64,000 nucleotides of DNA from the NCBI GenBank assembly GCA_030390025.1, contig CM059431.1, positions 135,286,001 to 135,350,000 of the forward strand, given 5' to 3'. The notes beneath the pieces were generated by a model. It saw only the letters and a program-made list of their open reading frames with translations. It did not search any database and was not told the origin of the DNA. The position numbers were made by a program, and so were the translations under genes. Of the stretch, positions 1-62,610 are shown piece after piece (the stretch's first letter is position 1; each line of letters starts with the position of its first letter). The stretch is from Squalus acanthias. Lineage: Eukaryota.

Positions 1-942
1 GGCAGGTATCCCATATGCCTTTTTAACCACCTTATCTACCTGTCCTGCTGCCTTCAGGGATCTATGTACATGCACGCCAAGGTCCCTCTGATCCTCTGTC
101 CTTCCTAGGGTCCTACCATTCATTGTATATTCCCTTGCCTTGTTAGTCCTCCCAAAATGCATCACCTCTCATTTTTCAGGGTTAAATTCCATTTGCCACG
201 TTTCTGCCCATCTAACCAACCTGTCTATATCGTCCTGTAGCCTGAGGCTTCCCTCCTCGCTATTTACCAACCCACCAATTTTCGTGTCATCTGCGAACTT
301 ACTGATCATACCTCCTACATTCATATCTAAATCATTAATGTACACTACAAACAGCAAAGGACCCAGCAGCGATCCCTGCGGTACACCACTGGACACAGGC
401 TTCCAGTCACAAAAACAACCTTTGACCATCACCCTCTGCCTCCTGCCACTAAGCCAATTTTGGATCCAATGTGCCAAGTTGCCCTGGATCCCATGGGCTT
501 TTACCTTCGTGACCAGTCTCCCATGCGGGACTTTGTCAAAAGCCTTACTGATGTCCATGTAGACCACATCAACTGCACTACCCTCATCCACACACCTAGT
601 CACCCCCTCGAAAAATTCAATCAAATTGGTCAGACATGATCTCCCCCTGACAAAGCCATGCTGACTATCCTTGATTAATCCTTGCCTCTCCAAGTGGAGA
701 CTAATTCTGTCCCTCAGCATTTTTTCCAATAATTTCCCTGCCACTGATGTTAGGCTCACTGGCCTGTAATTCCCTGGTTTATTCCTGCTACCCTTCTTGA
801 ATAATGGTACTACGTTAGCTGTTCTCCAGTCCTCTGGCACCTCCCCTGTGGTCATGATGCGGAGATGCCGGTGTTGGACTGGGGTGGACAAAATTGAGAG
901 GTCGCACAACACCAGGTTATAGTCCAACAGTTTTATTTGAAA

Positions 943-984
943 TCACAAGCTTTCGGAGCTATCGATTGCTCCTTCCTCAGGTGA
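943..984 (-). ncRNA. Minimal type I hammerhead ribozyme (mirror copy)
   Basis: Reverse complement of 1725-1766. Confidence 0.85.
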
Positions 985-1724
985 AGTAAATTAGATACAG
1001 AATCGCCAAAGCATATATAGATAGAGAACAAAGCATGTGTACCTTACAATTGCAGACCACTAAATTAAATCATCCTGACTATCTGCCGAGGTGTGATAAA
1101 GTTAATCAAGTCAGCCAGGAAGGTACCACATCAAAGACATAGCAAGATACAACTGAGACAATGAGGTGTAGTCGCAGGGGTTCTAACGTGTCAAAAGCTG
1201 CCGTCTGTATGTAAAACGAAAAGCTTTAAAATTTTTACTTTTTTACTGGGAAAATTTTTACTTTTTTACTGGGAATCACATCTGTGAACAAGCCAGCGAC
1301 GACTCGAGTCCGGATCACGTCATGTATCGTGACATAAACCCAAGATCCCGGTTGAGACCGGGATCTTGGGTTTATGTCACGATACATGACGTGATCCGGA
1401 CTCGAGTCGTCGCTGGCTTGTTCACAGATGTGATTCCCAGTAAAAAAGTAAAAATTTTCCCAGTAAAAAAGTAAAAATTTTAAAGCTTTTCGTTTTACAT
1501 ACAGACGGCAGCTTTTGACACGTTAGAACCCCTGCGACTACACCTCATTGTCTCAGTTGTATCTTGCTATGTCTTTGATGTGGTACCTTCCTGGCTGACT
1601 TGATTAACTTTATCACACCTCGGCAGATAGTCAGGATGATTTAATTTAGTGGTCTGCAATTGTAAGGTACACATGCTTTGTTCTCTATCTATATATGCTT
1701 TGGCGATTCTGTATCTAATTTACT

Positions 1725-1766
1725 TCACCTGAGGAAGGAGCAATCGATAGCTCCGAAAGCTTGTGA
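1725..1766 (+). ncRNA. Minimal type I hammerhead ribozyme (PLE-associated)
   Basis: tcac-CTGAGGA-a-ggagc-aatcgata-gctcc-GAAA-gctt-gtga: helix I tcac/gtga, helix II ggagc/gctcc, palindromic AAGCTT in place of helix III. Confidence 0.85.
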
Positions 1767-3341
1767 TTTCAAATAAAACTGTTGGACTATAACCTGGTGT
1801 TGTGCGACCTCTCAATTTTGACCTCCCCTGTGGCCAGAGAGGTTCTGAAAATTTGTGTCAGAGCCCCTGCAATCTCCTCCCTTGCCTCACACAGCAGCCT
1901 GGGATACATCTCATCTGGGCCTGGGGATTTATCCACTTTTAAGCCTGCTAAAACCGCTAGTACCTCCTCCCTCTCAATACTAATTTGTTCAAGTATATCA
2001 GAATCCCCCTGCCTGATTTCTATGCCTGCATCGTCCTTCTCCATAGTGAACACAGATGCAAAATATTCATTTAAAACCCCACCTACATCTTCTGGCTCCA
2101 CACACAGATTGCCACTTTGGTCCCTAATGGGCCCTACTCTTTCCCTGGTTATCCTCTTGCCCTTAATATACTTATAAAACACCTTGGGATTTCCCTTTAT
2201 TTTGCCTGCCAGAGTTATTTCATGCCCCCTCTTCGCTCTCCTAATTTCTTTTTTAAGTACCCCCCTGCACTTTCTATACTCCTCTGGGGCTTCCACTGTT
2301 TTTAGTCCTATGTATCTGCCAAAAGCCTCCCTTTTTTTCCTAATCCATTCTCGTATATCCCTTGACATCCAGGGTTCCCTCGGCTTGTTGGTCCCACCCT
2401 TGACCTTTACGGGAACATGTTGCCGTTGTACTCTCTCTATTTCCTTTCTGAAAGACTCCCACTGCTCTGATGTGGATTTTCCTACAAGTAGCTGATCCCA
2501 GTCCACTTTGGCCAGATCCTGCCTTATCATATTAAAATCGGCCTTCCCCCAATTTAGAACCTTTATCTCCGGTCCATCTTTGTCCTTTTCCATGACTACC
2601 TTAAATCTCACCTGAATTATGGTCACTGTCACCAAAATGCTCTCCTACTAACACTTCTACCACTTGCCCAGGCTACATTCCCTAGAATTAGGTCCAGTAC
2701 CGCCCCCTCTCTTGTAGGACTTTCTACATGCTGGCTCAAAAAGCTCTCCTGGATGCACTTTAAGAATTCCGCACCTTCTAAGCCTTTCACACTCTGACTA
2801 TCCCAGTTACTATTGGGGAAGTTGAAATCCCGTACTATTATTACCCTATTATTTCTACACTTCTCTGAGATTTGCCTACATATCTGTTCCTCTATCTCCC
2901 CCTGACTGTTTGGGGGCCTATAGTTTTTAAGTTCTACCCATATGGCCTCATTAGAGGAACCTGCTAAGATATCATCCCTCCTTACAGCAGTAATTGACTT
3001 TTTGATTAATATTGCGACACTCTCTTTTACACCCCCCTCTGTCTCGCCTGAAGATTCTATACCCCGGAATATTGAGCTGCCAGTCCTGCCCCTCCCTCAA
3101 CCATGTCTCTGTGATAGCAACAATATCATACTCCCATGTGTTCATCAACACCTTCCATTCATCTGCCTTACTCGCAAGACTCCTTGCATTAAAATAAATG
3201 CCATCCAGCCTTGCCATACTCCTTTGTGCCGTTACATATTTGCTCTGCCTTCCAGGCTGACTTGTTTTTTCCTCTATATTTGGCTGTGCATCACCCCCTA
3301 CTATAGCTCCACTCCGTATCCCATCCCCCTGCCAAGTTAGT

Positions 3342-4285
3342 TTAAACCCCCCCAACAGTACTAGCAAACCTCCCCGCAAGGATGTTGGTCCCATTCCGGT
3401 TCAGGTGCAACCCATCCAACTTGTACAGGTCCCACCTTCCCCAGAAACAGACCCAGTGATCCAGGAAACTAAAGCCCTCCCTCCTGCACGAACTCTTTAG
3501 CCACGCATTCATCTGCTCTATCCTCCTATTCCTATAGTCACTAGCACGTGGCACCGGGAGTAATCCAGAGATTACAACCTTTGAGGTCCTGCTTTTTAAT
3601 CTGCTACCTTGCTCCCTAAATTCTTGTTGCAGGACCTCATCCCTCTTTCTACCCATGTCGTTGGTACCAATGTGAACCACGACCTCTGACTGTTCGCCCT
3701 CCCCCTTCAGAATGCCCTGCAGCCGTTCAGTGACATCCTTGACCCTGGCACCAGGGAGGCAACATACCATCCTGGAGTCACGTCTGCGGCCACAGAAACG
3801 TCTATCTGTTCCCCTTACGATAGAATCCCCTATCACTATTGCTCTCCCACTCTTTTTCCTCCCCTCCTGTGCAGCTGAGCCAGTCGTAGTGCCATGGACT
3901 TGGCTCTTGCTGCATTCCCCTGAGAAACCATCTCCCCATCAGTATCCAAAACGGAAAATCTGTTGGAGAGGGAGATGGACCCAGGGGACTCCTGCACTAC
4001 CTTGCTAGTTCTTTTACTCTGTCTGGTGGTCACCCATTCCCTGTCTGCCTGTGCACTCTTTACCTGCGGTGTGACCACCTCGTTAAACGTGCTATCCACG
4101 AAGATCTCAGCTTCGCGGATGCCCCACAGTGACTCTAGCTGCAGCTCCAGCTCTGAAACGCGGATTTCGAGTAGCTGCAGCTGGAGACACTTGCTGCACA
4201 TGTGTTCGCCCTGGACACCTAAAGTGTCCCTGACTTCCAACATAGCACAGGAGGAGCACTCCACGTTGCCGAGCTGCCCTGCCAT
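3342..4285 (-). pseudogene. CR1 ORF1 (zinc finger/leucine zipper plus SGNH esterase), frameshifted
   Basis: Split between track ORFs 3836-4285 and 3342-3836; GDS and DGLH esterase motifs. Confidence 0.9.
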
Positions 4286-6100: not shown

Positions 6101-6843
6101 GGGCCGAAAATTGATCCCGGGACGCGAGAGTACGCACTGCGTACTCTCGCGTATTCCCACTCCAATTGCCGGTTTTCTGCATGCCCTGCGCATGCGCTGA
6201 AAACCGGCAATTGCTCTTCTGAAAAGGGGGCGGGGCCTGGGTGCATCGCGTGCGCGCTACAGGCTGCGCGCACGCTGTGCACTTCATGCTTTGGACGCGC
6301 AGGTAAGTAGGGAAGATTTTGGAAATGTAAAAAGGAGGAGTAAGACCCGCTTTTAAGAAGGTAAGTAGTGAATTAAGTATTTTTTTGAATTTTTTTTTAC
6401 AGGTATATCTTTTTTAGAGACTTTAAAGACAGGTAAGTTTATTTTAATAACTTTTTAAAAGATTTTAAATTTTTTCAAAAATTTAATTTTTTATTTAAAA
6501 TGGTTAATTTAATTAACTATACTTATTTTATTAATGTGATGGTTTTTTTTTTATTTAATTGAGGTTTAGCTGTTATTTTGGGGGGGGTGTAAGATTCATA
6601 GATTTCACAGCCATGCTGTGAGACTTATGAATGGAAGATGGTGTGCTGCCATTGGCTCTAACTGAGTCACGTGATCCCACAGCTCGCACGAATTCACTAC
6701 GCCGCTGGGATACGCAAGCCCAGCACAGCTGATGTCTGGAACATCAATTTCGTGCGAGCTGGATCAGAAAAAGCACAAGCGAGGTGAGACATCGCGGGGA
6801 AGGCTTACCCCCGCGGGAACAGAGCGAGATCAATTTCTGGGCC
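6101..6843 (+). mobile_element. PIF/Harbinger-type MITE, family A
   Basis: TIRs gggccgaaaattgatc / gatcaatttctgggcc; 3-bp TSD agt; closely similar reverse-oriented copies at 31392-32118 and 53392-54135. Confidence 0.9.
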
Positions 6844-10267: not shown

Positions 10268-13200
10268 GGCCCAGAAATTAAACAGTGAGGGTTCCCGCGG
10301 GGGTAAGGAATTCCCGCGATATCGCACTCCGCGCCTACCTTTTTGCTCCGGGCCCACACGAACTTTAGTTTGAAAGGCTCTCTCTCTTGGAACCGTGCAG
10401 TGCTTGCGTGACCCAGAGACGCAATTAGTTCGTGCGAGCTCTGGGATCACGTGATTCAGTTGGAGCCAATGGCAGCACACCATCTTTCATTCATAGTTTT
10501 GACAGGAAGACCTGTCAAAGCTATGAATACTACACACCGCCAAAAGAACAGCTAAACCTCAATTAAATTTTTTTTTAAAAGCCATCACATTAATAAAATA
10601 AGTATAGTTAAATAAATTAACCACTTTAAACAAAAAATTAAATTTTTGAAACAATTTAAAATCTTTTTAAAAGTTATAAAAATAAACTTACCTTTCTTTA
10701 AAGTCTCTAAAAAAGATAAACCTGTTGAAAAAAGTTTAAAATAACACTTAATTAACTACTTACCTTGTTAAAAGGGGGTCCTACGCCTGCTTTCTTTATG
10801 TGTAAAATCTTCACCACTTACCTGCGCGTCTCCAATTCAGTATCCCGTCCCCGCCTTCTCTCCGTAACCCTTAACCCCTTTTGCCTGTAGAAATATATCT
10901 AATTCCCTCTTAAATATATTTAATGAGCTGGCGTACACAGCCCTCTGTGGCAATGAGTTCCACAGGTTCACCACCCTCTGAGTGAAGAAATTCCCCCTCA
11001 TTTCTGTCCTAAATGGTTTAGCCCTTATCCTTAAATTATGTCCTCTAGTTCTGTTCTCACCCGCCAAGGGAAACATTCCTTCTGCATCTAGTCTGTCTAG
11101 ACCTGTCAGAATTTTATACACTTCTATGAGGTCCCCTCTCAATCTTCTAAACTCCAGTGTGTACATCCCTAAACTACATAGTCTCTCCTCATAGGTCAAT
11201 CCCGCCATTCCTGGTATCAGCCTGGTGAATCGCCGCTGCACCCCCTCCATGGCAAGAACATCTTTCCTCAGATGAGGCGACCAAAACTGTACACAGTACT
11301 CGAGGTGTGGTCTCACCAGTGCCCTGTACAGCTGCAGCAAGGTATCCCTGTTCCTGTATTCCAACCCTTTTGCTATGAAGGCCAGCATACCGTTTGCCTT
11401 CTTGATCGCCTGTTGCACCTGCATGCTCGCCTTCAGTGACTGGTGTACAAGAACACCCAGGTCTCTCTGTACTTCCCCCTCTCCCAATTTATTGCCATTT
11501 AAATAATAATTTGCCCTCCCGTTCCTGCACCCAAGGTGGATAACTTCGCACTTGTCCACATTATAGTGCATCTGCCATTTATCCGCCCAATCACCCAGTC
11601 TGTCCAAATCGCTCTGGAGCTTCCTGGTCTCCTCCTCTGAGCCCACCCCCCCTCCTAGTTTAGTGTCGTCTGCAAATTTGGAAATGCTGCATCCGACTCC
11701 CTGATCCAGGTCATTAATGTAAATTGTGAACAGCTGGGGACCCAGGACAGATCCCTGCGGTACCCCACTTGTTACTGCCTGCCATTCAGAAAATGAGCCG
11801 TTTATTCCAACTCTCTGTTTTCTATCTGACAGCCAGTTCTCTATCCACGTCAATACTTTCCCCTTTATCCCATGAGCTTCAATTTTCCCTGCTAATCTTT
11901 TATGTGGGACCTTATCGAAGGCCTTTTGGAAGTCCAGGTACACCACATCTACTGGCTCTCCCCCATCTATTTTACCAGTTACTCCCTCAAAAAATTCCAA
12001 TAGATTAGTCAAGCACGATTTACCCTTTGTAAATCCATGTTGACTCTGTCCTATCCTGTCCCCATTTGCTAAGTGCTCCGCTATTTCATCCTTAATGATG
12101 GACTCCAGCATTTTGCCCACAACTGATGTAAGGCTTACAGGTCTGTAATTACCTGCTTTTTCCCTACCCCCCTTTTTGAATAGTGGGGTAACGTTAGCTA
12201 CCCTCCAATCCATGGGCACTGTTCCCGAGTCTAATGAATTCTGAAAAATCATACTTAGTGCATCCGCTATCTCTAGGGCCACCTCCTTCAGTACCCTAGG
12301 ATGCATGTTATCAGGCCCTGGGGATTTGTCCGCCTTCAATCCCTTTAGCTTCCTTAACACCATATCCTTAGAGATATTGATTTGCGTCAGTTCCTCCTTT
12401 GCAAATGTCCCTATTTTTCCCGATATCCCAGGGAGGTTTTTTGTGTCTTCCTTCGTAAAGACTGACCCAAAGTATGCATTTAGTTGGTCTGCCATTTCTT
12501 TATTTCCCGTTATATATTCCCCCGTATCTGACTGCAATGGGCCAACTTTGGTTTTCACCAGTCTTTTCCTCTTGATATACTTATAAAAGCTTTTGGAGTT
12601 AGTTTTTATATTTTCCGCCAGCTTGCTTTCGTAAGCTATTTTGCCCCTCTTGATTAAGCCCTTTGTCCTCCTTTGCTCTATCTTAAACTGTTCCCAATCT
12701 TCCGCTCTGGCGCTTTTTTTGGCTATTTTATACGCCCTATCTTTGGATTTTATGCTGTCTCTAATTTCCCCTGTTATCCACGGTTGAGTCACCTTTTTAG
12801 ATTTCCTTTTATGACAGATTGGTATAAACAATTTTTGCAATTTTGTCATTCTATCTTTAAATGCTTGCCATTGTTTATCTACCTCCAGTCCTCCCAGGAA
12901 CGTTGTCCAATCATACCTACTCAGTTCCCGTCTAATGGCATCATAATTCCCCTTGTTTAAATTCAGGACCTTAGTATCTGAGTCAATTTCTTCGCTCTCC
13001 ATTTCGAGTGAGAAATCGATCATGTTATGATCGCTCTGCCCCAAGGGTCCCCGCACAACAAGATTACTAATTAGTCCCTTCTCATTGCACAGTACCCAGT
13101 CCAATATAGCCTGTTCCCGAGTTGGTTCCTCGACATATTGATCCAGATAACCATCCCTTAAACACTCAAGGAATTCCTCCTCCTCATTATTTTTACTGAT

Positions 13201-13534
13201 TAGGCTATTCCAATCTATATGTAAGTTAAAGTCACCTATGATGACAGCTGTGCTCTTATTGCACGCTTCTCTAATTTCCCTCGTGATGCCCTCCCCAACC
13301 TCTATTTTACTATTTGGAGGCCTATATACCACAAAGCTGAAATAATAACTAAGTGCACTGCGTGCGCACAGCCTGTAGCGCGCACACGGTTCACTTAGGA
13401 ACCGCCCCCTTTTGAATTCACGAAGTGCCGGTTTCCCGCGCATGCGCAGTGCATGCAGGAAACCGGCAATTCGGGATCGAATACGCGAGAGTACACAGTG
13501 CGTACTCTCGCGTATTAGGTCTAATTTTCGGGCC
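10268..13534 (-). mobile_element. Composite TIR element: diverged family-A Harbinger MITE carrying a CR1 ORF2 segment
   Basis: TIRs ggcccagaaatta / taattttcgggcc. 10268-10830 and 13332-13534 are colinear with MITE copies 31392-32118 and 53392-54135. CR1 sequence fills 10831-13331. Confidence 0.88.
10837..13331 (-). CDS. Uninterrupted CR1 ORF2 segment: C-terminal part of APE endonuclease, complete RT and C-terminal domain (part of the 919-aa track ORF)
   Basis: VVYRPP, GDFN, SDHN, NYRPVSLTS, QHGF, DFQKAFD, GVPQGS, KFADD, RDLGV, native stop GTGY*. No stops or frameshifts. First in-frame Met inside the CR1 part is at 13023 (728 aa). Confidence 0.85.
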
Positions 13535-14710
13535 ATAGAAACATAGAAGATAGGAGCAGGAGTAGGCCATTCGGCCCCTCGAGCCTGCTCCGCCATTCGA
13601 TAAGATCATGGCTGATCATCCAAACTCAGTACCCTGTACCTGCCTTCTCCCCATATCCCTTGATACCTTTAGCTTTAAGAAATATATCTAACTCATTCTT
13701 GAATATATTTAATGACTTGGCCTCAACTACCTTCTGTGGTAGAGAATTCCACAGGTTCACCACTCTCTGGGTGAAGAAATTCTTCCTCATTTCTGTCCTA
13801 AATGGCTTACCCCTTATCCTTAGTTTATGACCCCTGGTTCTGGACTCTCCGACCATCGGGAACATTCTTCCTGCATCTAGTTTGTCCAGACCTGTCAGAA
13901 TTTTATATGTTTCGATGAGATCCCCTCTCATTCTTCTATACTCCAGCGAGTATAAGTCCAATTGACCCAATCTTTCCTCATATGTCATTCCTGCCATCCC
14001 AGGTATCAGCCTTGTGAATCTTCGCTGAACTCCTTCCATGGCAAGAACATCCTTCCTCAGATAAGGCGACCAAAACTGCACACAGTACTCAAGGTGTAGT
14101 CTCACCAAGGCCCTGTACAACTGCAGCAGGACATCCCTGTTCCTATACGCAAACCCTTTCGCTATGAAGGCCAACATACCATTTGCCTTCTTCACCGCCT
14201 GCTGCACCTGCATGCTTACCTTCAGCGACTGGTGCACAAGGACACCCAGGTCTCGTTGCACTTCCCCTTCTCCCAATCTATTGCCATTCAGATAATAGTC
14301 TGCCTTTCTGTTTTTGACACCAAAGTGGATAACCTCGCATTTATCCACATTATACTGCATCTGCCACGCTTCTGCCCACTCACCCAACCTGTCCAAATCA
14401 TCCTGGAGTTTCTCGGTATCCTCCTCGCTGCACACACGCCCCCCCAGCTTTGTGTCATCTGCAAACTTGGAGATATTACATTTAGTTCCCTTATCTAGAT
14501 CATTAATGTATATTGTGAATAGCTGGGGTCCAAGGACCGATCCCTGCGGTACCCCACTAGTCACTGCTTGCCACTCGGAAAAAGACCCATTAATTCCTAC
14601 TCTCTGTTTTCTGTCCGCCAACCAGTTCTCTATCCAAGTCAATACCTTGCCCCCAATCCCATGTGCCTTAACTTTACACGCTAATCTCTTATGCGGGACC
14701 TTATCGAAGG
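13535..14710 (-). mobile_element. 5'-truncated CR1 with open RT C-terminal half, 3' UTR and (gtttctat)n tail
   Basis: Track ORF 13626-14642; 3' UTR 13550-13625; tail atagaaacatagaag on the plus strand abutting the MITE TIR. Confidence 0.92.
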
Positions 14711-17727: not shown

Positions 17728-18225
17728 TATTACAAATAAAAACAGAAAATGCTGGAAATACTCAGCAGGTCAGGCAGCATCTGTAGAGAGAGAAACAGAG
17801 TTAATGTTTCAGGTCGATGACCCTTCGTCAGAACTGGAAAAAGTTGGAGGTGTAACAGGTTTTTAAGCAAGTGTAGGGGCAGGGAGAGGATGAAATGACA
17901 CGTGAGAGAGGAAAAAAAAACACCAAAAAATGATAGGGGCAGAGGTTATGGTCTGAAATTGTTGAACTCGATGTTGAGTCCAGAAGGTTTTTGTTTTATT
18001 TTTTATCATTTTTTTTCTCTCTCTCACATGGCAGCTGTTGATCATCCTGCCATTGCCATTTACACTTCATCTAAAGTCATGTTTTGTTTCTTAACTTGTC
18101 CCATTACCATCTCCTTTTGCCTTGCACCATCATCCCTTTTGTCTCTTAATCTCTCCTGCCTTCCATTCCTATCACAGACCTTCCTTTTTGTTCTTTCCTC
18201 CCCTCCCTCCTCTCCCTGCCCCCTT
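17728..18225. mobile_element. Second Penelope-like family: pLTR fragments, apparently in inverted arrangement
   Basis: Minus-strand pLTR end with a hammerhead (about 17728-17990), followed by a pyrimidine-rich plus-strand segment (about 18025-18225) of the same type. Confidence 0.65.
17799..17835 (-). ncRNA. Minimal hammerhead motif, helix III palindrome mutated
   Basis: Minus strand: agtt-CTGACGA-a-gggtc-atc-gacct-GAAA-catt-aact; AACATT where an AACGTT palindrome is expected. Confidence 0.7.
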
Positions 18226-27069: not shown

Positions 27070-27545
27070 GAAAGTAAAAAAAAAAATTTCCACTGATTTA
27101 TCATTTTAAAATACTTTAAAGAAAGTTAAGTTTATTTTTAGCCCCGTTAAAAACTTTAATTATTTTTTTCAAAAATTAAAATTTTTGTTTAAAATAGTTA
27201 ATTTATGTAATTTATAGTCATTTTAAAAATGTGATGTTTTAAAAAAAATTATTTGAAGTTTTACTTATGTTTTGGGGCTGATCTCTATTCATAGATTTGA
27301 CAGGTCTTCCTGTCAAATCCATGAATGGAGATTCCCTGCTCTGATTGGCTCCCCATGGCCCACGTGATCCCAGGGACGCTGCGAACTACCTGCGCCCCTG
27401 GGATACGCATGCCCTGCACACCGGCAGTTTGAAGAGGCACAGCAACGGAATTCTGCGCCTCCCGGGAGCCCTCCGGTCCAGGTGCAGATCTTTCCGGATC
27501 GCAGCCTTCCGCCCGCGGGAGGGCTGCGAACAGAATTTCTGGGCC
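27070..27545 (+). mobile_element. Right half of a family-A-related MITE
   Basis: AT-rich core, attcatagatttgacagg dyad, attgg and cacgtgatccc motifs, end aatttctgggcc followed by att. Confidence 0.75.
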
Positions 27546-30879: not shown

Positions 30880-33145
30880 AGTCTCCCATTATAACCAAGC
30901 TGCTTTTTCAACAAGCTTCTCTGATTTCCGTGCTTATGCATCATTACTGCTATCAGGAGGTCTGCAGACACCTCCCACCAAAGTCTTGCATCTTTTTCTA
31001 TTCATCAATTCTACCCAGAGAGCCTGCTCACCCTTCCTGATGCTGTAATAGTGAGCTTTATCAATATTGCTACTCCTCCTTATTTTCCAATTTCCCTATC
31101 CTTTCAAAAGACCTTATAAGCTGGAATATGTATCTCCCAGTCATGCCCAGCTTGCAGTCAAGTCTCAGTGATGGCCACTACGTTATACCCTTTAAGCTGA
31201 ATTTTGCACTTCTAATTCACTTGTTTTATTCCTATGCTACGAGCATTTGTGTATAGAACTCTTATTTGGGCTATAGACACTATCCTGCCCTTTTGCCCTG
31301 ATGCTGTTTTCCACACACTTTTTAACTCATTTTACATCAGTTATTTTTTATTATTTCCTATATTTTTTTCTGAACCGTAAGTATTTATATTGGCCCAGAA
31401 ATTGATCTCGCTCTGTTCCCGCGGGGGTAAGGAGCAGGCGCGATCTCTCACTCCGCGTTGGCTTTTTCAGATCCAGCTCGCACGAACTTGATGTTCCAGA
31501 CATCAGCTGGGCAGTGCTTGCGTATCCCACCGGCGTAGTGAATTCGTGCGAGCTGTGGGATCACGTGACTCAGTTAGAGCCAATGGCAGCACACCATCTT
31601 CCATTCATAAGTTTCACATAAGTGCTGTGAAAGCTATGAATCTTACACCCCCCCAAAATAACAGCTAAACCTCAATTAAATTTTTTTTAAAAACCATCAC
31701 ATTAATAAAATAAGTATAGTTAAATAAATTAACCATTTTAAATAAAAAATTAAATTTTTGTTAAAAAGTTATAAAAATAAACTTACCTGTCTTTAAAGTC
31801 TCTAAAAAAGATATACCTGTTAAAAAAAATTCAAAAAAATACTTAATTCACTACTTACCTTGTTAAAAGTGGGTCTTACTCCTCCTTTTTCCATTTCTAA
31901 AATCTTCCGTCCTTACCTGCGCGTCCAAAGCACTAAGTGCACAGCGTGCGCGCAGCCTGTAGCGCGCACGCGATGCACCGAGGAACCGCCCCCTTTTCCA
32001 AAGACCAAGTGCCGGTTTTCAGCGCATGCGCAGGGCATGCAGAAAACCGGCAATTGGAGAGAGAATACGCGAGAGTACGCAGTGTGTACTCTCGCGCAGC
32101 GGGATCAATTTTTGGCCCATTATCTTTAACACTATTTATGACCTGGACTTCACTCTCATCCCTTTTTTCTTATCTTTAGGCTATTTTTACTTTTATTATT
32201 ATTTCTGCCTGAGCCTCGCCTGCCCCTTTATTGGTTTAAAGTCCTTTCTAGAGTCCTATTTATCCTTTCAGCGAGGACCTTGGTCCCAGACCAAGTGCAG
32301 CCTGTCCCAGCAGTACAATTCCCTCCTGCCCCAGTAGTGGTGCCATTGTCTTGTGAAATGGAACCCTTTTTTTTCACACCAATCTTTCAGCCATGCATTC
32401 ACTTTCCTGATCTGTTTGTCCCTCTGCCAATTAGTACGTGGTTCGGGTAATATTTGTGAGATTTCTACCCCCGAGGTCCTAGCTCCTGATACTCTCTTAG
32501 CAGGATTTCCTTCCTGTTCTTTCCTATGTCGTTGATCCCGACATGGACTACGACAACAGGTTTTTCACCCTCCCTTTCCAGGCACTTTGAGATAGCCCTT
32601 ACCAGATAGCACCAGGTAGGCATCACATCTTTTGGGACTCTTGATCAAGGCTGCAGAAAATGCTATCCATTCCACTAATTATTAAATCCCCTATAGCTAC
32701 AAACTTTCTATTCTGATCCCCACCCCCTTGAACTGCCTGTAGCTCCATGATGCCTTGGTCAGCATTCTGGCTGTCCTTCCCACAGCTCTCCTTATCCTCA
32801 CAAGTAGCCAGTACATCGTACTTGTTGGACAGGACCAGATTCTGCGATTCCTCCTTCCCTGTCTCAACTAGATTCCTTTTACCCTGCTGACTGTCAGTCA
32901 CACACTCCTCGACCTGTACCTGCCTCTCTCTACTTGGTATAACTGTGTTCTGGAGTAAACTATCCAGATATTCCTCCTGCTCCCTTATGTGTCGTAGTGT
33001 CTCTAACTCACAGTCCAGCTCAATGACTCTGAGCTGGAGTGACTCAAGGCAGAGACATTTGTAATCGATGTGGTCATCCAGGACAGACTCGCTGTCGACA
33101 AATTCCCAAATTCTGCCGTCCTGACACACTCCCTGTGCTGTCATT
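30880..33145 (-). mobile_element. Old CR1 5' portion (ORF1 and start of endonuclease), interrupted by a MITE
   Basis: Track ORF 32623-33144 (zinc-finger-like, leucine heptads, AIGD); esterase and endonuclease remnants. Confidence 0.75.
31392..32118 (-). mobile_element. Harbinger-type MITE, family A
   Basis: TIR ggcccagaaattgatc / gatcaatttttggccc; TSD att. Confidence 0.92.
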
Positions 33146-37850: not shown

Positions 37851-39029
37851 GGGCTGTATTTTGCGACCCCTACGGGTGCCTACGAGGTGTGCATACGCCC
37901 GTAGGGACCGTGCAAGTTCCGGGTTTAGGCATGCGAAGCGCATGTGCTAAAATCCGGAACTTGCGATCTGTCAATCCTCTTGACAGATCCTCCGCATCCC
38001 CGGGAGAAGGGCCTCTGCGTGTGGAGAGTTGCGCTATTTAGTTAGAAAATGTTAGAGCCCCCTGCGCCCGAAAGTCAATGATAACACTCCAAGCAGGAGG
38101 CGGGGCGCTACTGGAAGCGCACCCCCTCCCTCTTGAGCCGCTGTGAGTGAATATCGCGGGGCTACGTGCAGCAGCGCCACACGCGTCGGTACGTAGCACC
38201 GCGGTACTTCAGGCCTCCCTCCCCTGATTAAAGGGGAGGGGCCTAGCGCAGTGGCACTAGGGCCCTGCTGGCCGACCAGGGAATGGGGTGCTGGCAAAAG
38301 AGCAGTGCCGGGCTGACGGATCGCGGCTGGCACCCCACAGCAGGTGGCCAGAGGGGGCAGGTGCTGGCAGGCGGCCCAAAATAAATGGTCGCCCGGCACC
38401 TGCCCTTTAATTATCGCTGCCCCGGCCGCAAAAACACCACCCTGACCCCGTCAGACATAGCATCTGGCTGGAGGTCAGGGGCGCGAGCCAAGTTTGCGGC
38501 CGGGACGCGAGCGGGCCGCTACGCATGCCGATGACGTCGTCGCCGGAGGCGCTAACGGCTACCACCGCCGCTAACCTCCCACTGAATTTTGCAGGAGGTG
38601 TTAGCGGCACCACGCGCGGGTGCTAGTTAGTGCAAAGCAACCGAATTTTTTCCCCCATAATTTTTTTCAAAAATTAAATTTTCGTTTAAAATATTTAATT
38701 AAATGGCATTGTAATTAATTTTAAAATGTAATGTTTTTTTAATTTAATTTGTTCGTGTATTTTTTAAGTGATCCCCATTCATACTTATGGGAGTTCTGTA
38801 CGTACGCAACTCCCATAAGTATGATTGGGGATTCCCTTCTTTTATTGGTTGGGCCGGCCCACGTGATCCCAGGGGCGCTCGCGAACCACATGAGCCCCTG
38901 GGATACGTGGGCCTCTGCCTGTGCGGACCCGGAGAGGCCCAGGATCGCAAGCCTCCGTACCTCCCAGGCCACCAGGTAAATGTGTAGATTTTTTACAGGT
39001 CGGAGGCATCCGATCGCAAATTTTGGGCC
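37851..39029 (+). mobile_element. Family-A-related Harbinger MITE with a nested family-B MITE
   Basis: TIR gggctgtattttgcga / tcgcaaattttgggcc; TSD aat. Confidence 0.85.
38041..38656. mobile_element. Family-B MITE, nested, left end damaged
   Basis: Colinear with 25120-25748; right end aattttttccccc. Confidence 0.75.
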
Positions 39030-53391: not shown

Positions 53392-54135
53392 GGCCCAGAA
53401 ATTGATCTCGCTCTGTTCCCGCGGGGGTAAGGCTTCCCCGCGATCTCTCACTCCGCTTGTGCTTTTTCAGATCCAGCTCGCACGAACTTGATGTTCCAGA
53501 CATCAGCTGGGCAGTGCTTGCGTATCCCACCGGCGTAGTGAATTCGTGCGAGCTGTGGGATCACGTGACTCAGTTAGAGCCAATGGCAGCACACCATCTT
53601 CCATTCATAAGTTTCACATACGTGCTGTGAAATCTATGAATCTTACACCCCCCCAAAATAACAGCTAAACCTCAATTAAATTTTTTTTAAAAAACCATCA
53701 CATTAATAAAATAAGTATAGTTAAATAAATTAACCATTTTAAATAAAAAATTAAATTTTTGAAAAAATTTAAAATCTTTTAAAAAGTTATAAAAATAAAC
53801 TCACCTGTCTTTAAAGTCTCTAAAAAAGATATACCTGTTAAAAAAAAATCAAAAAAATACTTAATTCACTACTTACCTTGTTAAAAGTGGGTCTTACTCC
53901 TCCTTTTTCCATTTCTAAAATCTTCCGTACTTACCTGCGTGTCCAAAGCATGAAGTGCACAGCGTGCGCGCAGCCTGTAGCGCGCACGCGATGCACCGAG
54001 GAACCGCCCCTTTTCAAAAGAGCAATTGCCGGTTTTCAGCGCATGCGCAGGGCATGCAGAAAACCGGCAATTGGAGTGGGAATACGCGAGAGTACGCAGT
54101 GCGTACTCTCGCGTCGCGGGATCAATTTCTGGGCC
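53392..54135 (-). mobile_element. Harbinger-type MITE, family A
   Basis: Perfect 16-bp TIR ggcccagaaattgatc; TSD aat; removing it restores the CR1 sequence tgtaatatatcc. Confidence 0.95.
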
Positions 54136-58794: not shown

Positions 58795-61177
58795 TTTAAG
58801 TCCATTGCTCTTAGAGGTTTTTAAGGAGATTAAAATTGAGGGAAGCCTGGCCCCATCTATGAGGCGAGGTATCATAAGCTTAGCTTATAAAAATAAAGGG
58901 GATAGAAGGGATCTGAAGAATTGGAGGCCCATCACATTATTAAATGTGGATTATAAGATCTTGGCGAGGGTTATGGCAAATTGTATGAAGGAGGTGATGC
59001 TGCAGATAGTTTTGCCCTCTCAGTCCTAGTGAGTTATAGGCCGGGACATTGCAGACTCTGTGGTCTCAATCCGAGATGCGATCGAGCTCATGGAAGAGAG
59101 TGGGAGGGAGGCTTATGCGTTAAAGATAGATCAAGAGAAAGCCTTTGATAGGGTCTCTCATGAGTTTTTATTGATGGTTTTGGAAGCACTTTGTTTCAGG
59201 AAAAATTTCATTGAGTGGATAAGGATTTTTTATTCCAAACATATTTAGCTGTGTTAAATGTAATGGTTTTTTATCCAAGCATTTTCCGATACAGAGGTCA
59301 GTGAGACAGGGTTGTCCCCTGTCCCCATTGTTGTACACATTGGTAGCAGAACCATTAGGTTACATGATGCGAAAGGAACAAGGTGTAGTCGAGAGTGTGG
59401 TTCTCAGTTGCGGGCGGGTGTCGGTGATACATCAATATGCAGATGACACACCTTAATGTTGAGAGATGGAGAGTCAGTAAAGAAAGCTTTGAGTGTAGTG
59501 GAGGAGTATTGTAGAGCTTCAGGAGCCAGAATGAATTATAGTAAGTCCCATTGCCTGGTTGCGGGAAGGGGTAGGGGGGAATGGTTGGAGGAAAGTCCCT
59601 TTAAGGTGGTGGGGGTTTTGGAGGTTCTGGGGGTGCATATGGGGTGCAAGAAGGACAGGGATGAAGTGGATCGATTAAATTGGGAACCGAAGGTTATAAA
59701 AATTTAAAAGATTTTGGGAAGATGGGAAAGAAGGTGGTTGAAAGTGCAAGGAAGAGCGACAGTGGTGTCCGCTCTCCTGCTATCTAAACTATGGTACTTA
59801 TTGACGGTGGAGGATATTCCTGAGTGGGTGGAAAAGTCCATCTGAGAGGCTTGTGTGAGGTTTTTATGGGAAGGGAAACCAGCCTTGGTTGCTTACAATA
59901 CCATCATTGGACGGAGAAATCAGGGAGGACTCAATTTCTCAGATATTGATTTGAAGAAAAAATCCTTTAGAACCAAATGGGTGAAGAGATTTCTTCAGAA
60001 GTCAAATACAAGTTTTTGGAAGAGTTGTATTGAGCATTTTTAAAAACGAAGTGGGATAGGAGGACAGGGGATATTTTATATGGAATACAATAATATGTTC
60101 CTGAAATTGATTAAACCTCTCCCTAGGTTTTATAAGGGGGTTGTGGAGACTTGGGCCCAATTTTTAAAAAGTGTGCAGTTTATACCCAAGGGTGCTGAGG
60201 AATTTTTAGAACAGCCCTTATTTTTGAACAGGTGGGTCAACATTGAAGGAGAGGTATTATTTAATCAAGCTTTTATAAAAGCTGGTATTATACATGTGAA
60301 AGATGTATTATGTGAGGTAGTTCCAAGTTGGTTGCTGGAAGTGGTAGTGAAGGACATGATTTGTGAGGAGGATCAGGAGGTAGAGGAAAAAGCAATTATG
60401 ATCATGTATGAAAAGATTGTGAGGGCAATGCCGCAGGATTGGATGGAAGAAATAAATGCGCAAATTTCCAATGGAAGTAAAATGCGTCCCGCTTTTCCAA
60501 GCTTTCTGCTGGAGAAAGAGGAGGAGTTGATCCAGTTTGACAACTGTAATACTCGAGATTTCTATGGAGTATTAAGAGAATGGAAATTCAAGACACCTGC
60601 TGGTCAGGAGTTTTGGCAGAGTATATATCCACAGCTGGACTTCAACAGTATTTAGAAGGGAGTGTGGGTGAATTTTAAATGTCCAGATTGGATTGAACTG
60701 GATTTCAAATTGGCTCATAACCGGATTTTTACCATGATGGTCTTGTATAAGATTGGGCGAGTGGAGGTGGTAACTTGCCCAGTGTGTGGGACACGGGATG
60801 AGACTCTGTCCCATTTGCTGGTGTTATGTCCGCAGTTAAAGAATTTTAAGTACTATGTTCGACAGTTGTGTGAGTTTTTTTGCTGGTTGGGGACTGAAGA
60901 GTGAGAATGGGAATCCCGTGGAACTCAATTTTGAGATGGGGATTGCAGGAGTGTCTGGCCGAGTCTAGCGGAGTGGCAATTAATTTAATGTTCAGTTTGG
61001 CTAGATTCGTGATTGTGCAAAGAAGGAATGCTCTGTTTTTTAAGGGGAGGAGAATAAATCTAAAAGAGTTTTTTAAATATTAGCGAAAATAAGGCTCTGT
61101 GGATGTTTTATTCAGAAAGGAATTTAAAGATAGTATTTTATGATCAATTTTTAAAGTACAATAGATTAATAGATTAA

Positions 61178-62610
61178 TTCAAGAAGGGTAGTAGAGATAA
61201 ACCAGGGAATTACAGGCCAGTGAGCCTAACATCAGTGGTAGGGAAATTATTGGAAAAAATTCTGAGGGACAGAATTAGTCTCCACTTGGAGAGGCAGGGA
61301 TTAATCAGGGATAGTCAGCATGGCTTTGTCAGGGGGAGATCATGTCTGACCAATTTGATAGAATTTTTCGAGGGGGTGACTAGGTGTGTGGATGAGGGTA
61401 GTGCAGTTGATGTAGTCTACATGGACTTCAGTAAGGCTTTTGACAAAGTCCCACATGGGAGACTGGTCAAGAAGGTAAGAGCCCATGGGATCCAGGGCAA
61501 CTTGGCACATTGGATCGAAAATTGGCTTAGTGGCAGGAGGCAGAGGGTGATGGTTGAAGGTTGTTTTTGTGACTGGAAGCCTGTATCCAGTGGTGTACCG
61601 CAGGGATCGGTGCTGGGTCCTTTGCTGTTTGTAGTGTACATTAATGATTTAGATATGAATGTAGGAGGTATGATCAGTAAGTTCGCAGATGACATGAAAA
61701 TTGGTGGAGTGGTAAATAGCGAGGAGGGAAGCCTCAGACTACAGGACGATATAGATGGGTTGGTTAGATGGGCAGAACAGTGGCAAATGGAATTTAACCC
61801 TGAAAAGTGTGAGGTGATGCATTTTGGGAGGACTAACAAGGCAAGGGAATACACAATGAATGGTAGGACCCTAGGAAGGACAGAGGATCAGAGGGACCTT
61901 GGTGTGCATGCACATAGATCCCTGAAGGCAGCAGGACAGGTAGATAAGGTGGTTAAAAAGGCATATGGGATACTTGCCTTCATTAGCCGAGGCATAGAAT
62001 ATAAGAGCAGGGAGGTTATGATGGAGCTGTACAAAACGCTAGTTAGGCCACAGCTGGAATACTGTGTGCAGTTCTGGTCGCCACACTATAGGAGGGATGT
62101 GATTGCATTGGAGAGGGTGCAGAGGAGATTCACCAGGATGCTACCTGGGCTGGAGCGCTTCAGCTATGAAGAGAGACTAGACAGGCTGGGGTTGTCTTCC
62201 TTAGAGCAGAGAAGGCTGAGGGGGGACCTGATTGAGGTGTACAAAATTATGAGGGGCATAGATAGGGTAGATAGAAAGGAACTTTTCCCCTTAGTAGAGG
62301 GGTCAATAACCAGGGGGCATAGTTTCAAGGTAAGGGGCAGGAGGTTTAGAGGGGATTTGAGGAAAAACTTTTTCACCCAGAGGGTGGTTGGAATCTGGAA
62401 CTCACTGCCTGAAAGGGTGGTAGAGGCAGAAACCCTCACAACATTCAAGAAGCATTTAGATGAGCACTTGAAACGCCATAGCATACAAGGCTACGGACCA
62501 AGTGCTGGAAAATGGGATTAGAATAGACAGGACTTGATGGCTGGCGCGGACACGATGGGCCGAAGGGCCTCTTTCTGTGCTGTATAACTCTATGACTCTA
62601 TCTATGACTC
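61178..62610 (+). mobile_element. Young 5'-truncated CR1 with open RT frame
   Basis: Track ORF 61220-62521 (433 aa) without stops; (tatgactc)n tail; very similar to the CR1 at 1-850. Confidence 0.95.

Follow-up and report, generated by a model that had tools for sequence, protein, structure and literature searches.

The insertion and its host element

The window (the whole 64-kb stretch of Squalus acanthias DNA analysed) contains, near its left end, a fold-back insertion that interrupts a LINE. Two head-to-head arms around a short loop, with an unpaired tail on one side, lie between the two copies of a target site duplication (TSD) and make up an insert of 969 bp. The features of the locus are as follows:

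169-851, minus strand: host LINE of CR1 type, the ORF2 portion with the reverse transcriptase (RT), downstream of the insertion (RVT_1)
839-851, plus strand: left copy of the TSD, 13 bp (single-copy empty site, followed directly by the sequence from 1834, in 17 contigs of run X1 and 29 of run X2)
852-888, minus strand (sense): one-sided tail of 37 nt that forms the element's 3' extension and contains an ATG (855-853)
889-1352, minus strand: left arm, comprising the ORF end of the element, its 3' region and the pLTR
943-984, minus strand: minimal type I hammerhead motif of the left arm, core 951-980
1315-1359, minus strand: 3' end of the parent ORF, 14 codons plus the stop (translation; frame stop-free upstream in the hand-translated loose-end consensus)
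1349-1360, no strand: native dyad with a 4-bp stem and a 4-nt loop (1353-1356), the turning point (loose ends behind 1360; DNA hairpin -3.1 kcal/mol)
1357-1820, plus strand: right arm, inverted copy without the tail
1725-1766, plus strand: minimal type I hammerhead motif of the right arm, core 1729-1758
1821-1833, plus strand: right copy of the TSD (8 of its first 11 bases are shared with the start of the tail)
1834-3938, minus strand: host LINE of CR1 type, upstream of the insertion, with the front of ORF2 in pieces and an esterase-type ORF1 frame at 3342-3938

The host frame to the left of the insert has a match to Pfam RVT_1 (E 3.3e-32); upstream within the same LINE, 3342-3938 is a frame of SGNH-esterase type. 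The RVT_1 match confirms the placement of the insertion within the ORF2 of a LINE, as given in the original prediction; the family, which we take to be CR1, was named from features of that family, together with the esterase frame. The nearest copy of the host LINE in the window differs from it at 32 of 802 sites. This copy (61177-61978) corresponds to the 3' part of the host LINE (1-802), is 96% identical and lies in the opposite orientation, and its match ends 37 bases before the target site.

Exact extension outward from the centre paired 464 bases of the two arms (889-1352 and 1357-1820) with 0 mismatches around a TGAG loop (1353-1356), and left the 37 nt of 852-888 with no partner in the other arm. 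The longest direct repeat found at the junctions was the 13-bp TSD (839-851 = 1821-1833). Arms, loop, tail and TSD were thus all reproduced as predicted; the predicted insertion length of 932 bp fits arms plus loop, whereas the whole insert between the TSD copies is longer by the tail. In each arm the sense strand of the element is directed outward, and the minus strand through the tip translates as G-L-N-R-D-L-G-F-M-S-R-Y-M-T-stop. Chance origin of a perfect inverted repeat of 464 bp is far out of reach. A second copy of the insert is absent from the 64-kb window by blastn.

An open frame of 228 codons (169-855, minus strand), which includes the RVT_1 match, starts with the ATG of the tail end and runs on in phase into the RT region of the host. 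If the left arm contained a promoter, an RT-only fragment could be expressed from this frame; a one-in-three coincidence is equally possible. Elsewhere in the window, a LINE frame of 922 codons is open on the minus strand (10837-13605, with endonuclease and RT matches), small palindromes recur in a dispersed repeat family (6122-6213, 13418-13516, 32005-32057 and 54023-54114), and two similar-looking repeat copies contain short imperfect palindromes (38771-38832, 90%; 27281-27332, 85%).

Hammerhead motifs in the two arms

A strict hammerhead pattern, scanned on both strands of the 64 kb, gave 2 matches, one per arm. The motif has a helix I of 4 bp, a bulged A, a helix II of 5 bp that starts from a G-C pair and, where helix III would be, a palindromic GC. 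The relaxed scan gave 4 matches, namely the two arm motifs, one probable chance match and a minimal motif of different sequence at 17807-17831 (minus strand), which probably represents an isolated relic from a different Penelope-like family. The fold energy of the arm hammerhead is unremarkable (equalled in 15 of 200 shuffles), and the Rfam search returned no match to a hammerhead family up to E 5; its 6 hits, all hairpin or chance, lay below the gathering score. The miRNA hits among them, located at the tip, were rejected because they score below the gathering threshold and reflect only the perfect stem.

Twin hammerheads had been predicted for the insertion, and a minimal motif does occur in each arm; the two lie on opposite strands, so that they are never both in sense in one RNA. 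We therefore rejected a reading as a hammerhead dimer in cis. The presence of two motifs simply reflects the duplication of the arm. Read-through RNA would carry one of them in sense, buried inside the 464-bp stem, and we propose from the arrangement of the sequence that the predicted hammerheads were simply carried along with the terminal repeat when it was duplicated.

Other copies of the element in sequencing-run contigs

Parts of the region are contained in 20 of the 24 listed sequencing runs. The contigs of four of these (X1, X2, X7 and X11) were compared with 560-1366, a stretch that comprises the left half of the insertion and the tip; the right junction lies beyond it. Contig depth is used below as a rough measure. 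The empty CR1 site, in which 851 leads straight into the sequence from 1834, is present in two of the four runs (the X1 and X2 contigs listed above). These contigs fix the TSD but not an allele of this locus, because the host LINE is multi-copy.

Contigs that match through 1360 and then diverge into a common upstream coding sequence were found in X2 (18 contigs), X7 (4) and X11 (2); among the X1 contigs listed, none diverges after 1360. Because contigs of three of the four runs continue past 1360, the sequence 1349-1360 is native and the 4-bp dyad is present in the parent element, which bears out the natural dyad of the original prediction. The sense strand of the X2 loose-end consensus, translated by hand, reads L-S-A-K-F-R-T-H-E in frame with the G-L-N-R-D of the window. 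The parent ORF is known here from the 14 codons in the window and about 9 more in this consensus, and this stretch together with the ORF end may resemble a GIY-YIG C-terminus. A tandem duplication of exactly 23 nt occurs once per arm (within 1228-1273, mirrored at 1436-1481) and is a feature of the family, since an X11 contig spans it without differences or gaps.

At the outer end, the sequence before 854 is unrelated in 57 X1 contigs (agreement 0.39), and half of the 12 joints listed (6) enter at 853 or 855; from these loose ends and joints, the end of the tail is a terminus of the family. A second recurring terminus, at 884-888, comes from one joint seen in two of the four runs (X1 and X2), in which 847, within the CR1 sequence, is joined to 884 with 4 shared bases; it shows that other loci have an end without the tail at this point of CR1. 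This joint has a depth of 55 in X1 and 297 in X2, a joint from 847 to 930 has a depth of 13, and most other joints have depths of roughly 6-30. The CR1 sequence at 847-851 of the window is thus joined elsewhere to other points of the Penelope end (847 to 884, 847 to 930), and the repeated joints may mark either an insertion hot spot in the host LINE family or an amplified chimeric copy.

One contig of X11, which comes from another organism and a related subfamily, departs at 958 and ends in a perfect loop-less palindrome centred on the hammerhead core; this single contig is probably another fold-back tip, located elsewhere. The tip at the end of the ORF, as originally predicted, is correct in position; it looks incidental. 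The X11 contig has its tip inside the hammerhead instead. Among the 32 pieces listed of about 44,000, none crosses the tip; the compared stretch ends at 1366, which leaves such a contig running off.

Identity and age of the insertion

Four of the five structural features of an endonuclease-bearing (EN+) Penelope-like insertion are present: an inverted terminal repeat (464 bp), a tail of 37 nt, a TSD of 13 bp and a minimal hammerhead motif. The inverted arms, the one-sided tail, the TSD and the hammerhead motifs support the Penelope-like identity given in the original prediction, and the locus is almost certainly a young insertion, truncated at its 5' end, of a Penelope-like element with an endonuclease. 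We rejected a MITE or another DNA transposon with terminal inverted repeats, because the tail at one end is unpaired and other copies pass the tip into coding sequence. The insert itself may best be regarded, as we propose, as non-autonomous debris. A pattern search of the viral, metagenome and prokaryote collections with 25 nt of the terminal repeat gave 0 matches in all three, from which the parent ORF was not recovered, and a protein search with the first 40 residues of the frame 172-942 returned two candidates, none at E 1 or better, which carries little weight. Neptune elements possess a linker zinc finger that is absent from Poseidon elements. These two are the widespread vertebrate clades according to the available text of a 2026 preprint (10.64898/2026.07.22.740005).

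The insert is younger than the host LINE. The two arms show 0 differences in 464 positions (95% upper bound 0.64%), and X11 contigs are identical to the arm over 937-1016 (depth 253) and 1125-1293 (depth 343). In the host flank, more than 93% of the depth reads another base at positions 718, 740, 783 and 787 in both X1 and X2; among the arm positions listed, none shows another base at more than 93% of the depth in both runs. The very recent insertion of the original prediction is likely in view of the identical arms and contigs, although conversion between the arms could mask its age.

How the palindrome may have formed

Two routes from an element RNA to this palindrome deserve most weight. 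We slightly favour two-ended target priming with a join at the dyad, which accounts better for the tail, and give it about an even chance of being right. The two strands of the CR1 target would be cut by the element endonuclease with an offset of 13 nt, and each target 3' end would prime reverse transcription on the element RNA. The left end would start at the distal site and so acquire the tail, and the right end would start 37 nt further in. The two cDNAs would then grow toward each other with the same sequence, could pair only at a self-complementary spot, and by annealing at the 4-bp dyad near the ORF end, followed by fill-in, would yield a perfect head-to-head palindrome within the TSD. 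The anatomy, the native dyad and the two recurring family termini were observed; every enzymatic step of the route is inferred. We favour two-ended priming because both outer ends of the insert fall at termini used by other loci (853-855 and 884-888). The position of the turn on a native dyad speaks for this route as well, and the loop-less tip of the X11 contig fits annealing end to end better than a hairpin turn.

The available text of the study on the Anolis Poseidon element (PMC11167929) describes a purified protein that cuts and extends both target strands, RT starts at two sites with a spacing equal to the tail, and a predicted dimer. Priming on both strands is thus the activity observed in vitro, and this counts against the other route, a snap-back of the cDNA, which had been put forward in the original prediction and which we consider a serious contender with somewhat less than an even chance. 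On this account one target end would prime from the tail, and after 509 nt the 3' end of the cDNA would fold on the dyad and copy itself back; the second arm would fall short by 37 nt through an endonuclease cut at the tail boundary, or through a strand jump to the target at an 8/11 match. The dyad is native to the family and the arms are perfectly symmetric around the 4-nt loop, as a snap-back would have it, and a cDNA that ends at 1360 gives exactly the tip hairpin (-3.1 kcal/mol; for 1340-1360 it makes up 92% of the ensemble). The tip dyad is the third most stable among the dyads with a listed energy. The 509 nt copied contain 19 dyads of at least 4 bp with loops of 3-8 nt (10.4 in shuffles), and a random stop would land on a dyad in about 4% of cases. 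The available text of PMC3846280 takes palindromes at the inverted junctions of rotifer Penelope elements as a sign of self-priming, which as an idea for palindromic junctions is therefore not new. A snap-back requires an extra step to halt the second arm at a terminus shared with other loci, and the loop-less tip, seen in one contig, would be hard to make by an intramolecular turn. The native dyad of the original prediction stands; the snap-back step is not established by it, because dual priming gives the same sequence, and for the same reason this locus cannot discriminate between the two routes.

A further point for two-ended priming is that the TSD matches the RNA just past the short end at 8 of 11 bases, a likeness noticed post hoc; matches of 8/11 or better occur at 5 of 4816 11-mers of the host LINE and at 204 of 127,980 11-mers of the window. 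There are also points against this route. The target-end base that adjoins the junction is one of the three mismatches, and the 8/11 match would equally help a snap-back strand to land on the target. Pairing between target and RNA is further weakened by the in vitro observation that the RT start requires no homology to the cut DNA (available text of PMC11167929), and Craig et al. ascribe the tail to resolution of an intermediate by the endonuclease (available text of PMC8557442).

An origin of the palindrome after insertion, by replication fold-back, by deletion between longer head-to-head copies or by conversion that homogenised the arms, appears improbable. Long near-perfect inverted repeats are generally known to rearrange and homogenise, which would speak for such an origin; one clean TSD, however, bounds the whole unit, the host is intact on both sides, and the layout is the standard pattern of primary insertion according to the available text of PMC3846280 and PMC8557442. 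A fold-back artefact of the assembly or of a read is more improbable still. It would agree with the lack, among the contigs listed, of any that spans the tip or the right junction and with an empty site that is not assignable to the locus in a multi-copy LINE. A read chimera, however, would also mirror the tail and the left flank, whereas the mirror here stops at 889, and the 13-bp duplication leads into the correct host continuation, which independent runs confirm as the sequence after 851.

Extending two-ended priming beyond this locus, we tentatively suggest, at rather less than even confidence, that fold-back Penelope insertions in general could be a regular product of symmetric priming at both target ends by a dimeric enzyme. 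The tail would be the offset between the RT start sites, identical cDNAs would be sealed at any short dyad, and partial pairing of the target ends with the RNA past each start site would bias the landing, including the repeated use of this CR1 site. We found no statement of two-ended priming for inverted Penelope copies in the literature searched (subscription papers, such as older Arkhipova and Evgen'ev reviews, and figure supplements lay outside the search).

Taken alone, the locus is one more Penelope-like stub and of little weight. For the question of how the inverted copy and the tail arise it makes a clean test case: the copy is young, its TSD is intact, it turns on a native dyad, and its target is similar to the RNA at the second start site. 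Cruciform extrusion and dsRNA from the insert are plausible, and a perfect 464-bp palindrome with a 4-nt spacer in a vertebrate genome bears on the tolerance of cruciform-prone DNA.

Comparison with known systems

The back-to-back layout with tail, hammerheads and palindromic junctions is already published for Penelope-like elements (PLEs), and the locus represents a known architecture. Inverted pLTRs, a 31-bp tail and TSDs of 8-10 bp were described for rotifer Penelopes (Arkhipova et al. 2013, PMC3846280), and an inverted copy with a 30-40-bp tail is typical of PLEs (Craig et al. 2021, PMC8557442). In the available text of these papers, Pen2a_Av of Adineta vaga (PMC3846280) and the general PLE scheme (PMC8557442) share with the insertion a head-to-head copy, a one-sided tail of 30-40 nt, a TSD around the whole unit, a palindromic junction and insertion into another retroelement. 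In contrast to Pen2a_Av, both halves are truncated here to equal arms of 464 bp, no ORF body lies between them and the arms are still identical; the TSD, at 13 bp, is longer than the 8-10 bp of the rotifer examples (PMC3846280).

The available text on minimal hammerheads of metazoan PLEs (Cervera and de la Pena 2014, PMC4209133) describes the same features, namely a helix I of 4 bp, a single bulged base ahead of helix II, a G-C pair as the first pair of helix II and a palindromic 2-nt remnant of helix III. Motif pairs on opposite strands, 100-700 bp apart, were recorded there as well; the cores here are about 750 bp apart and helix II has 5 bp. With PAc, the Poseidon element of Anolis carolinensis (Frangieh et al. 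2024, PMC11167929), the insertion shares a minimal hammerhead in the terminal repeat and two termini that lie a tail length apart. The ORF of PAc begins inside the hammerhead, whereas here the visible candidate ATG closes the tail; PAc has an AT-rich target, and the target here is C-rich on the plus strand; inverted copies are not treated in the available text of that study.

For L1, a named model combines dual priming with a join by microhomology (Meyer et al. 2010, PMC2837659). L1 twin or dual priming, as set out in the available text, has in common with the route favoured here that both target 3' ends prime, that inverted halves lie within one TSD and that microhomology is expected at the inner junction (PMC2837659). 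The halves produced by twin priming of L1 are different parts of the element, whereas here they are the same sequence, so that a join would be possible only at a dyad and its product would be a palindrome.
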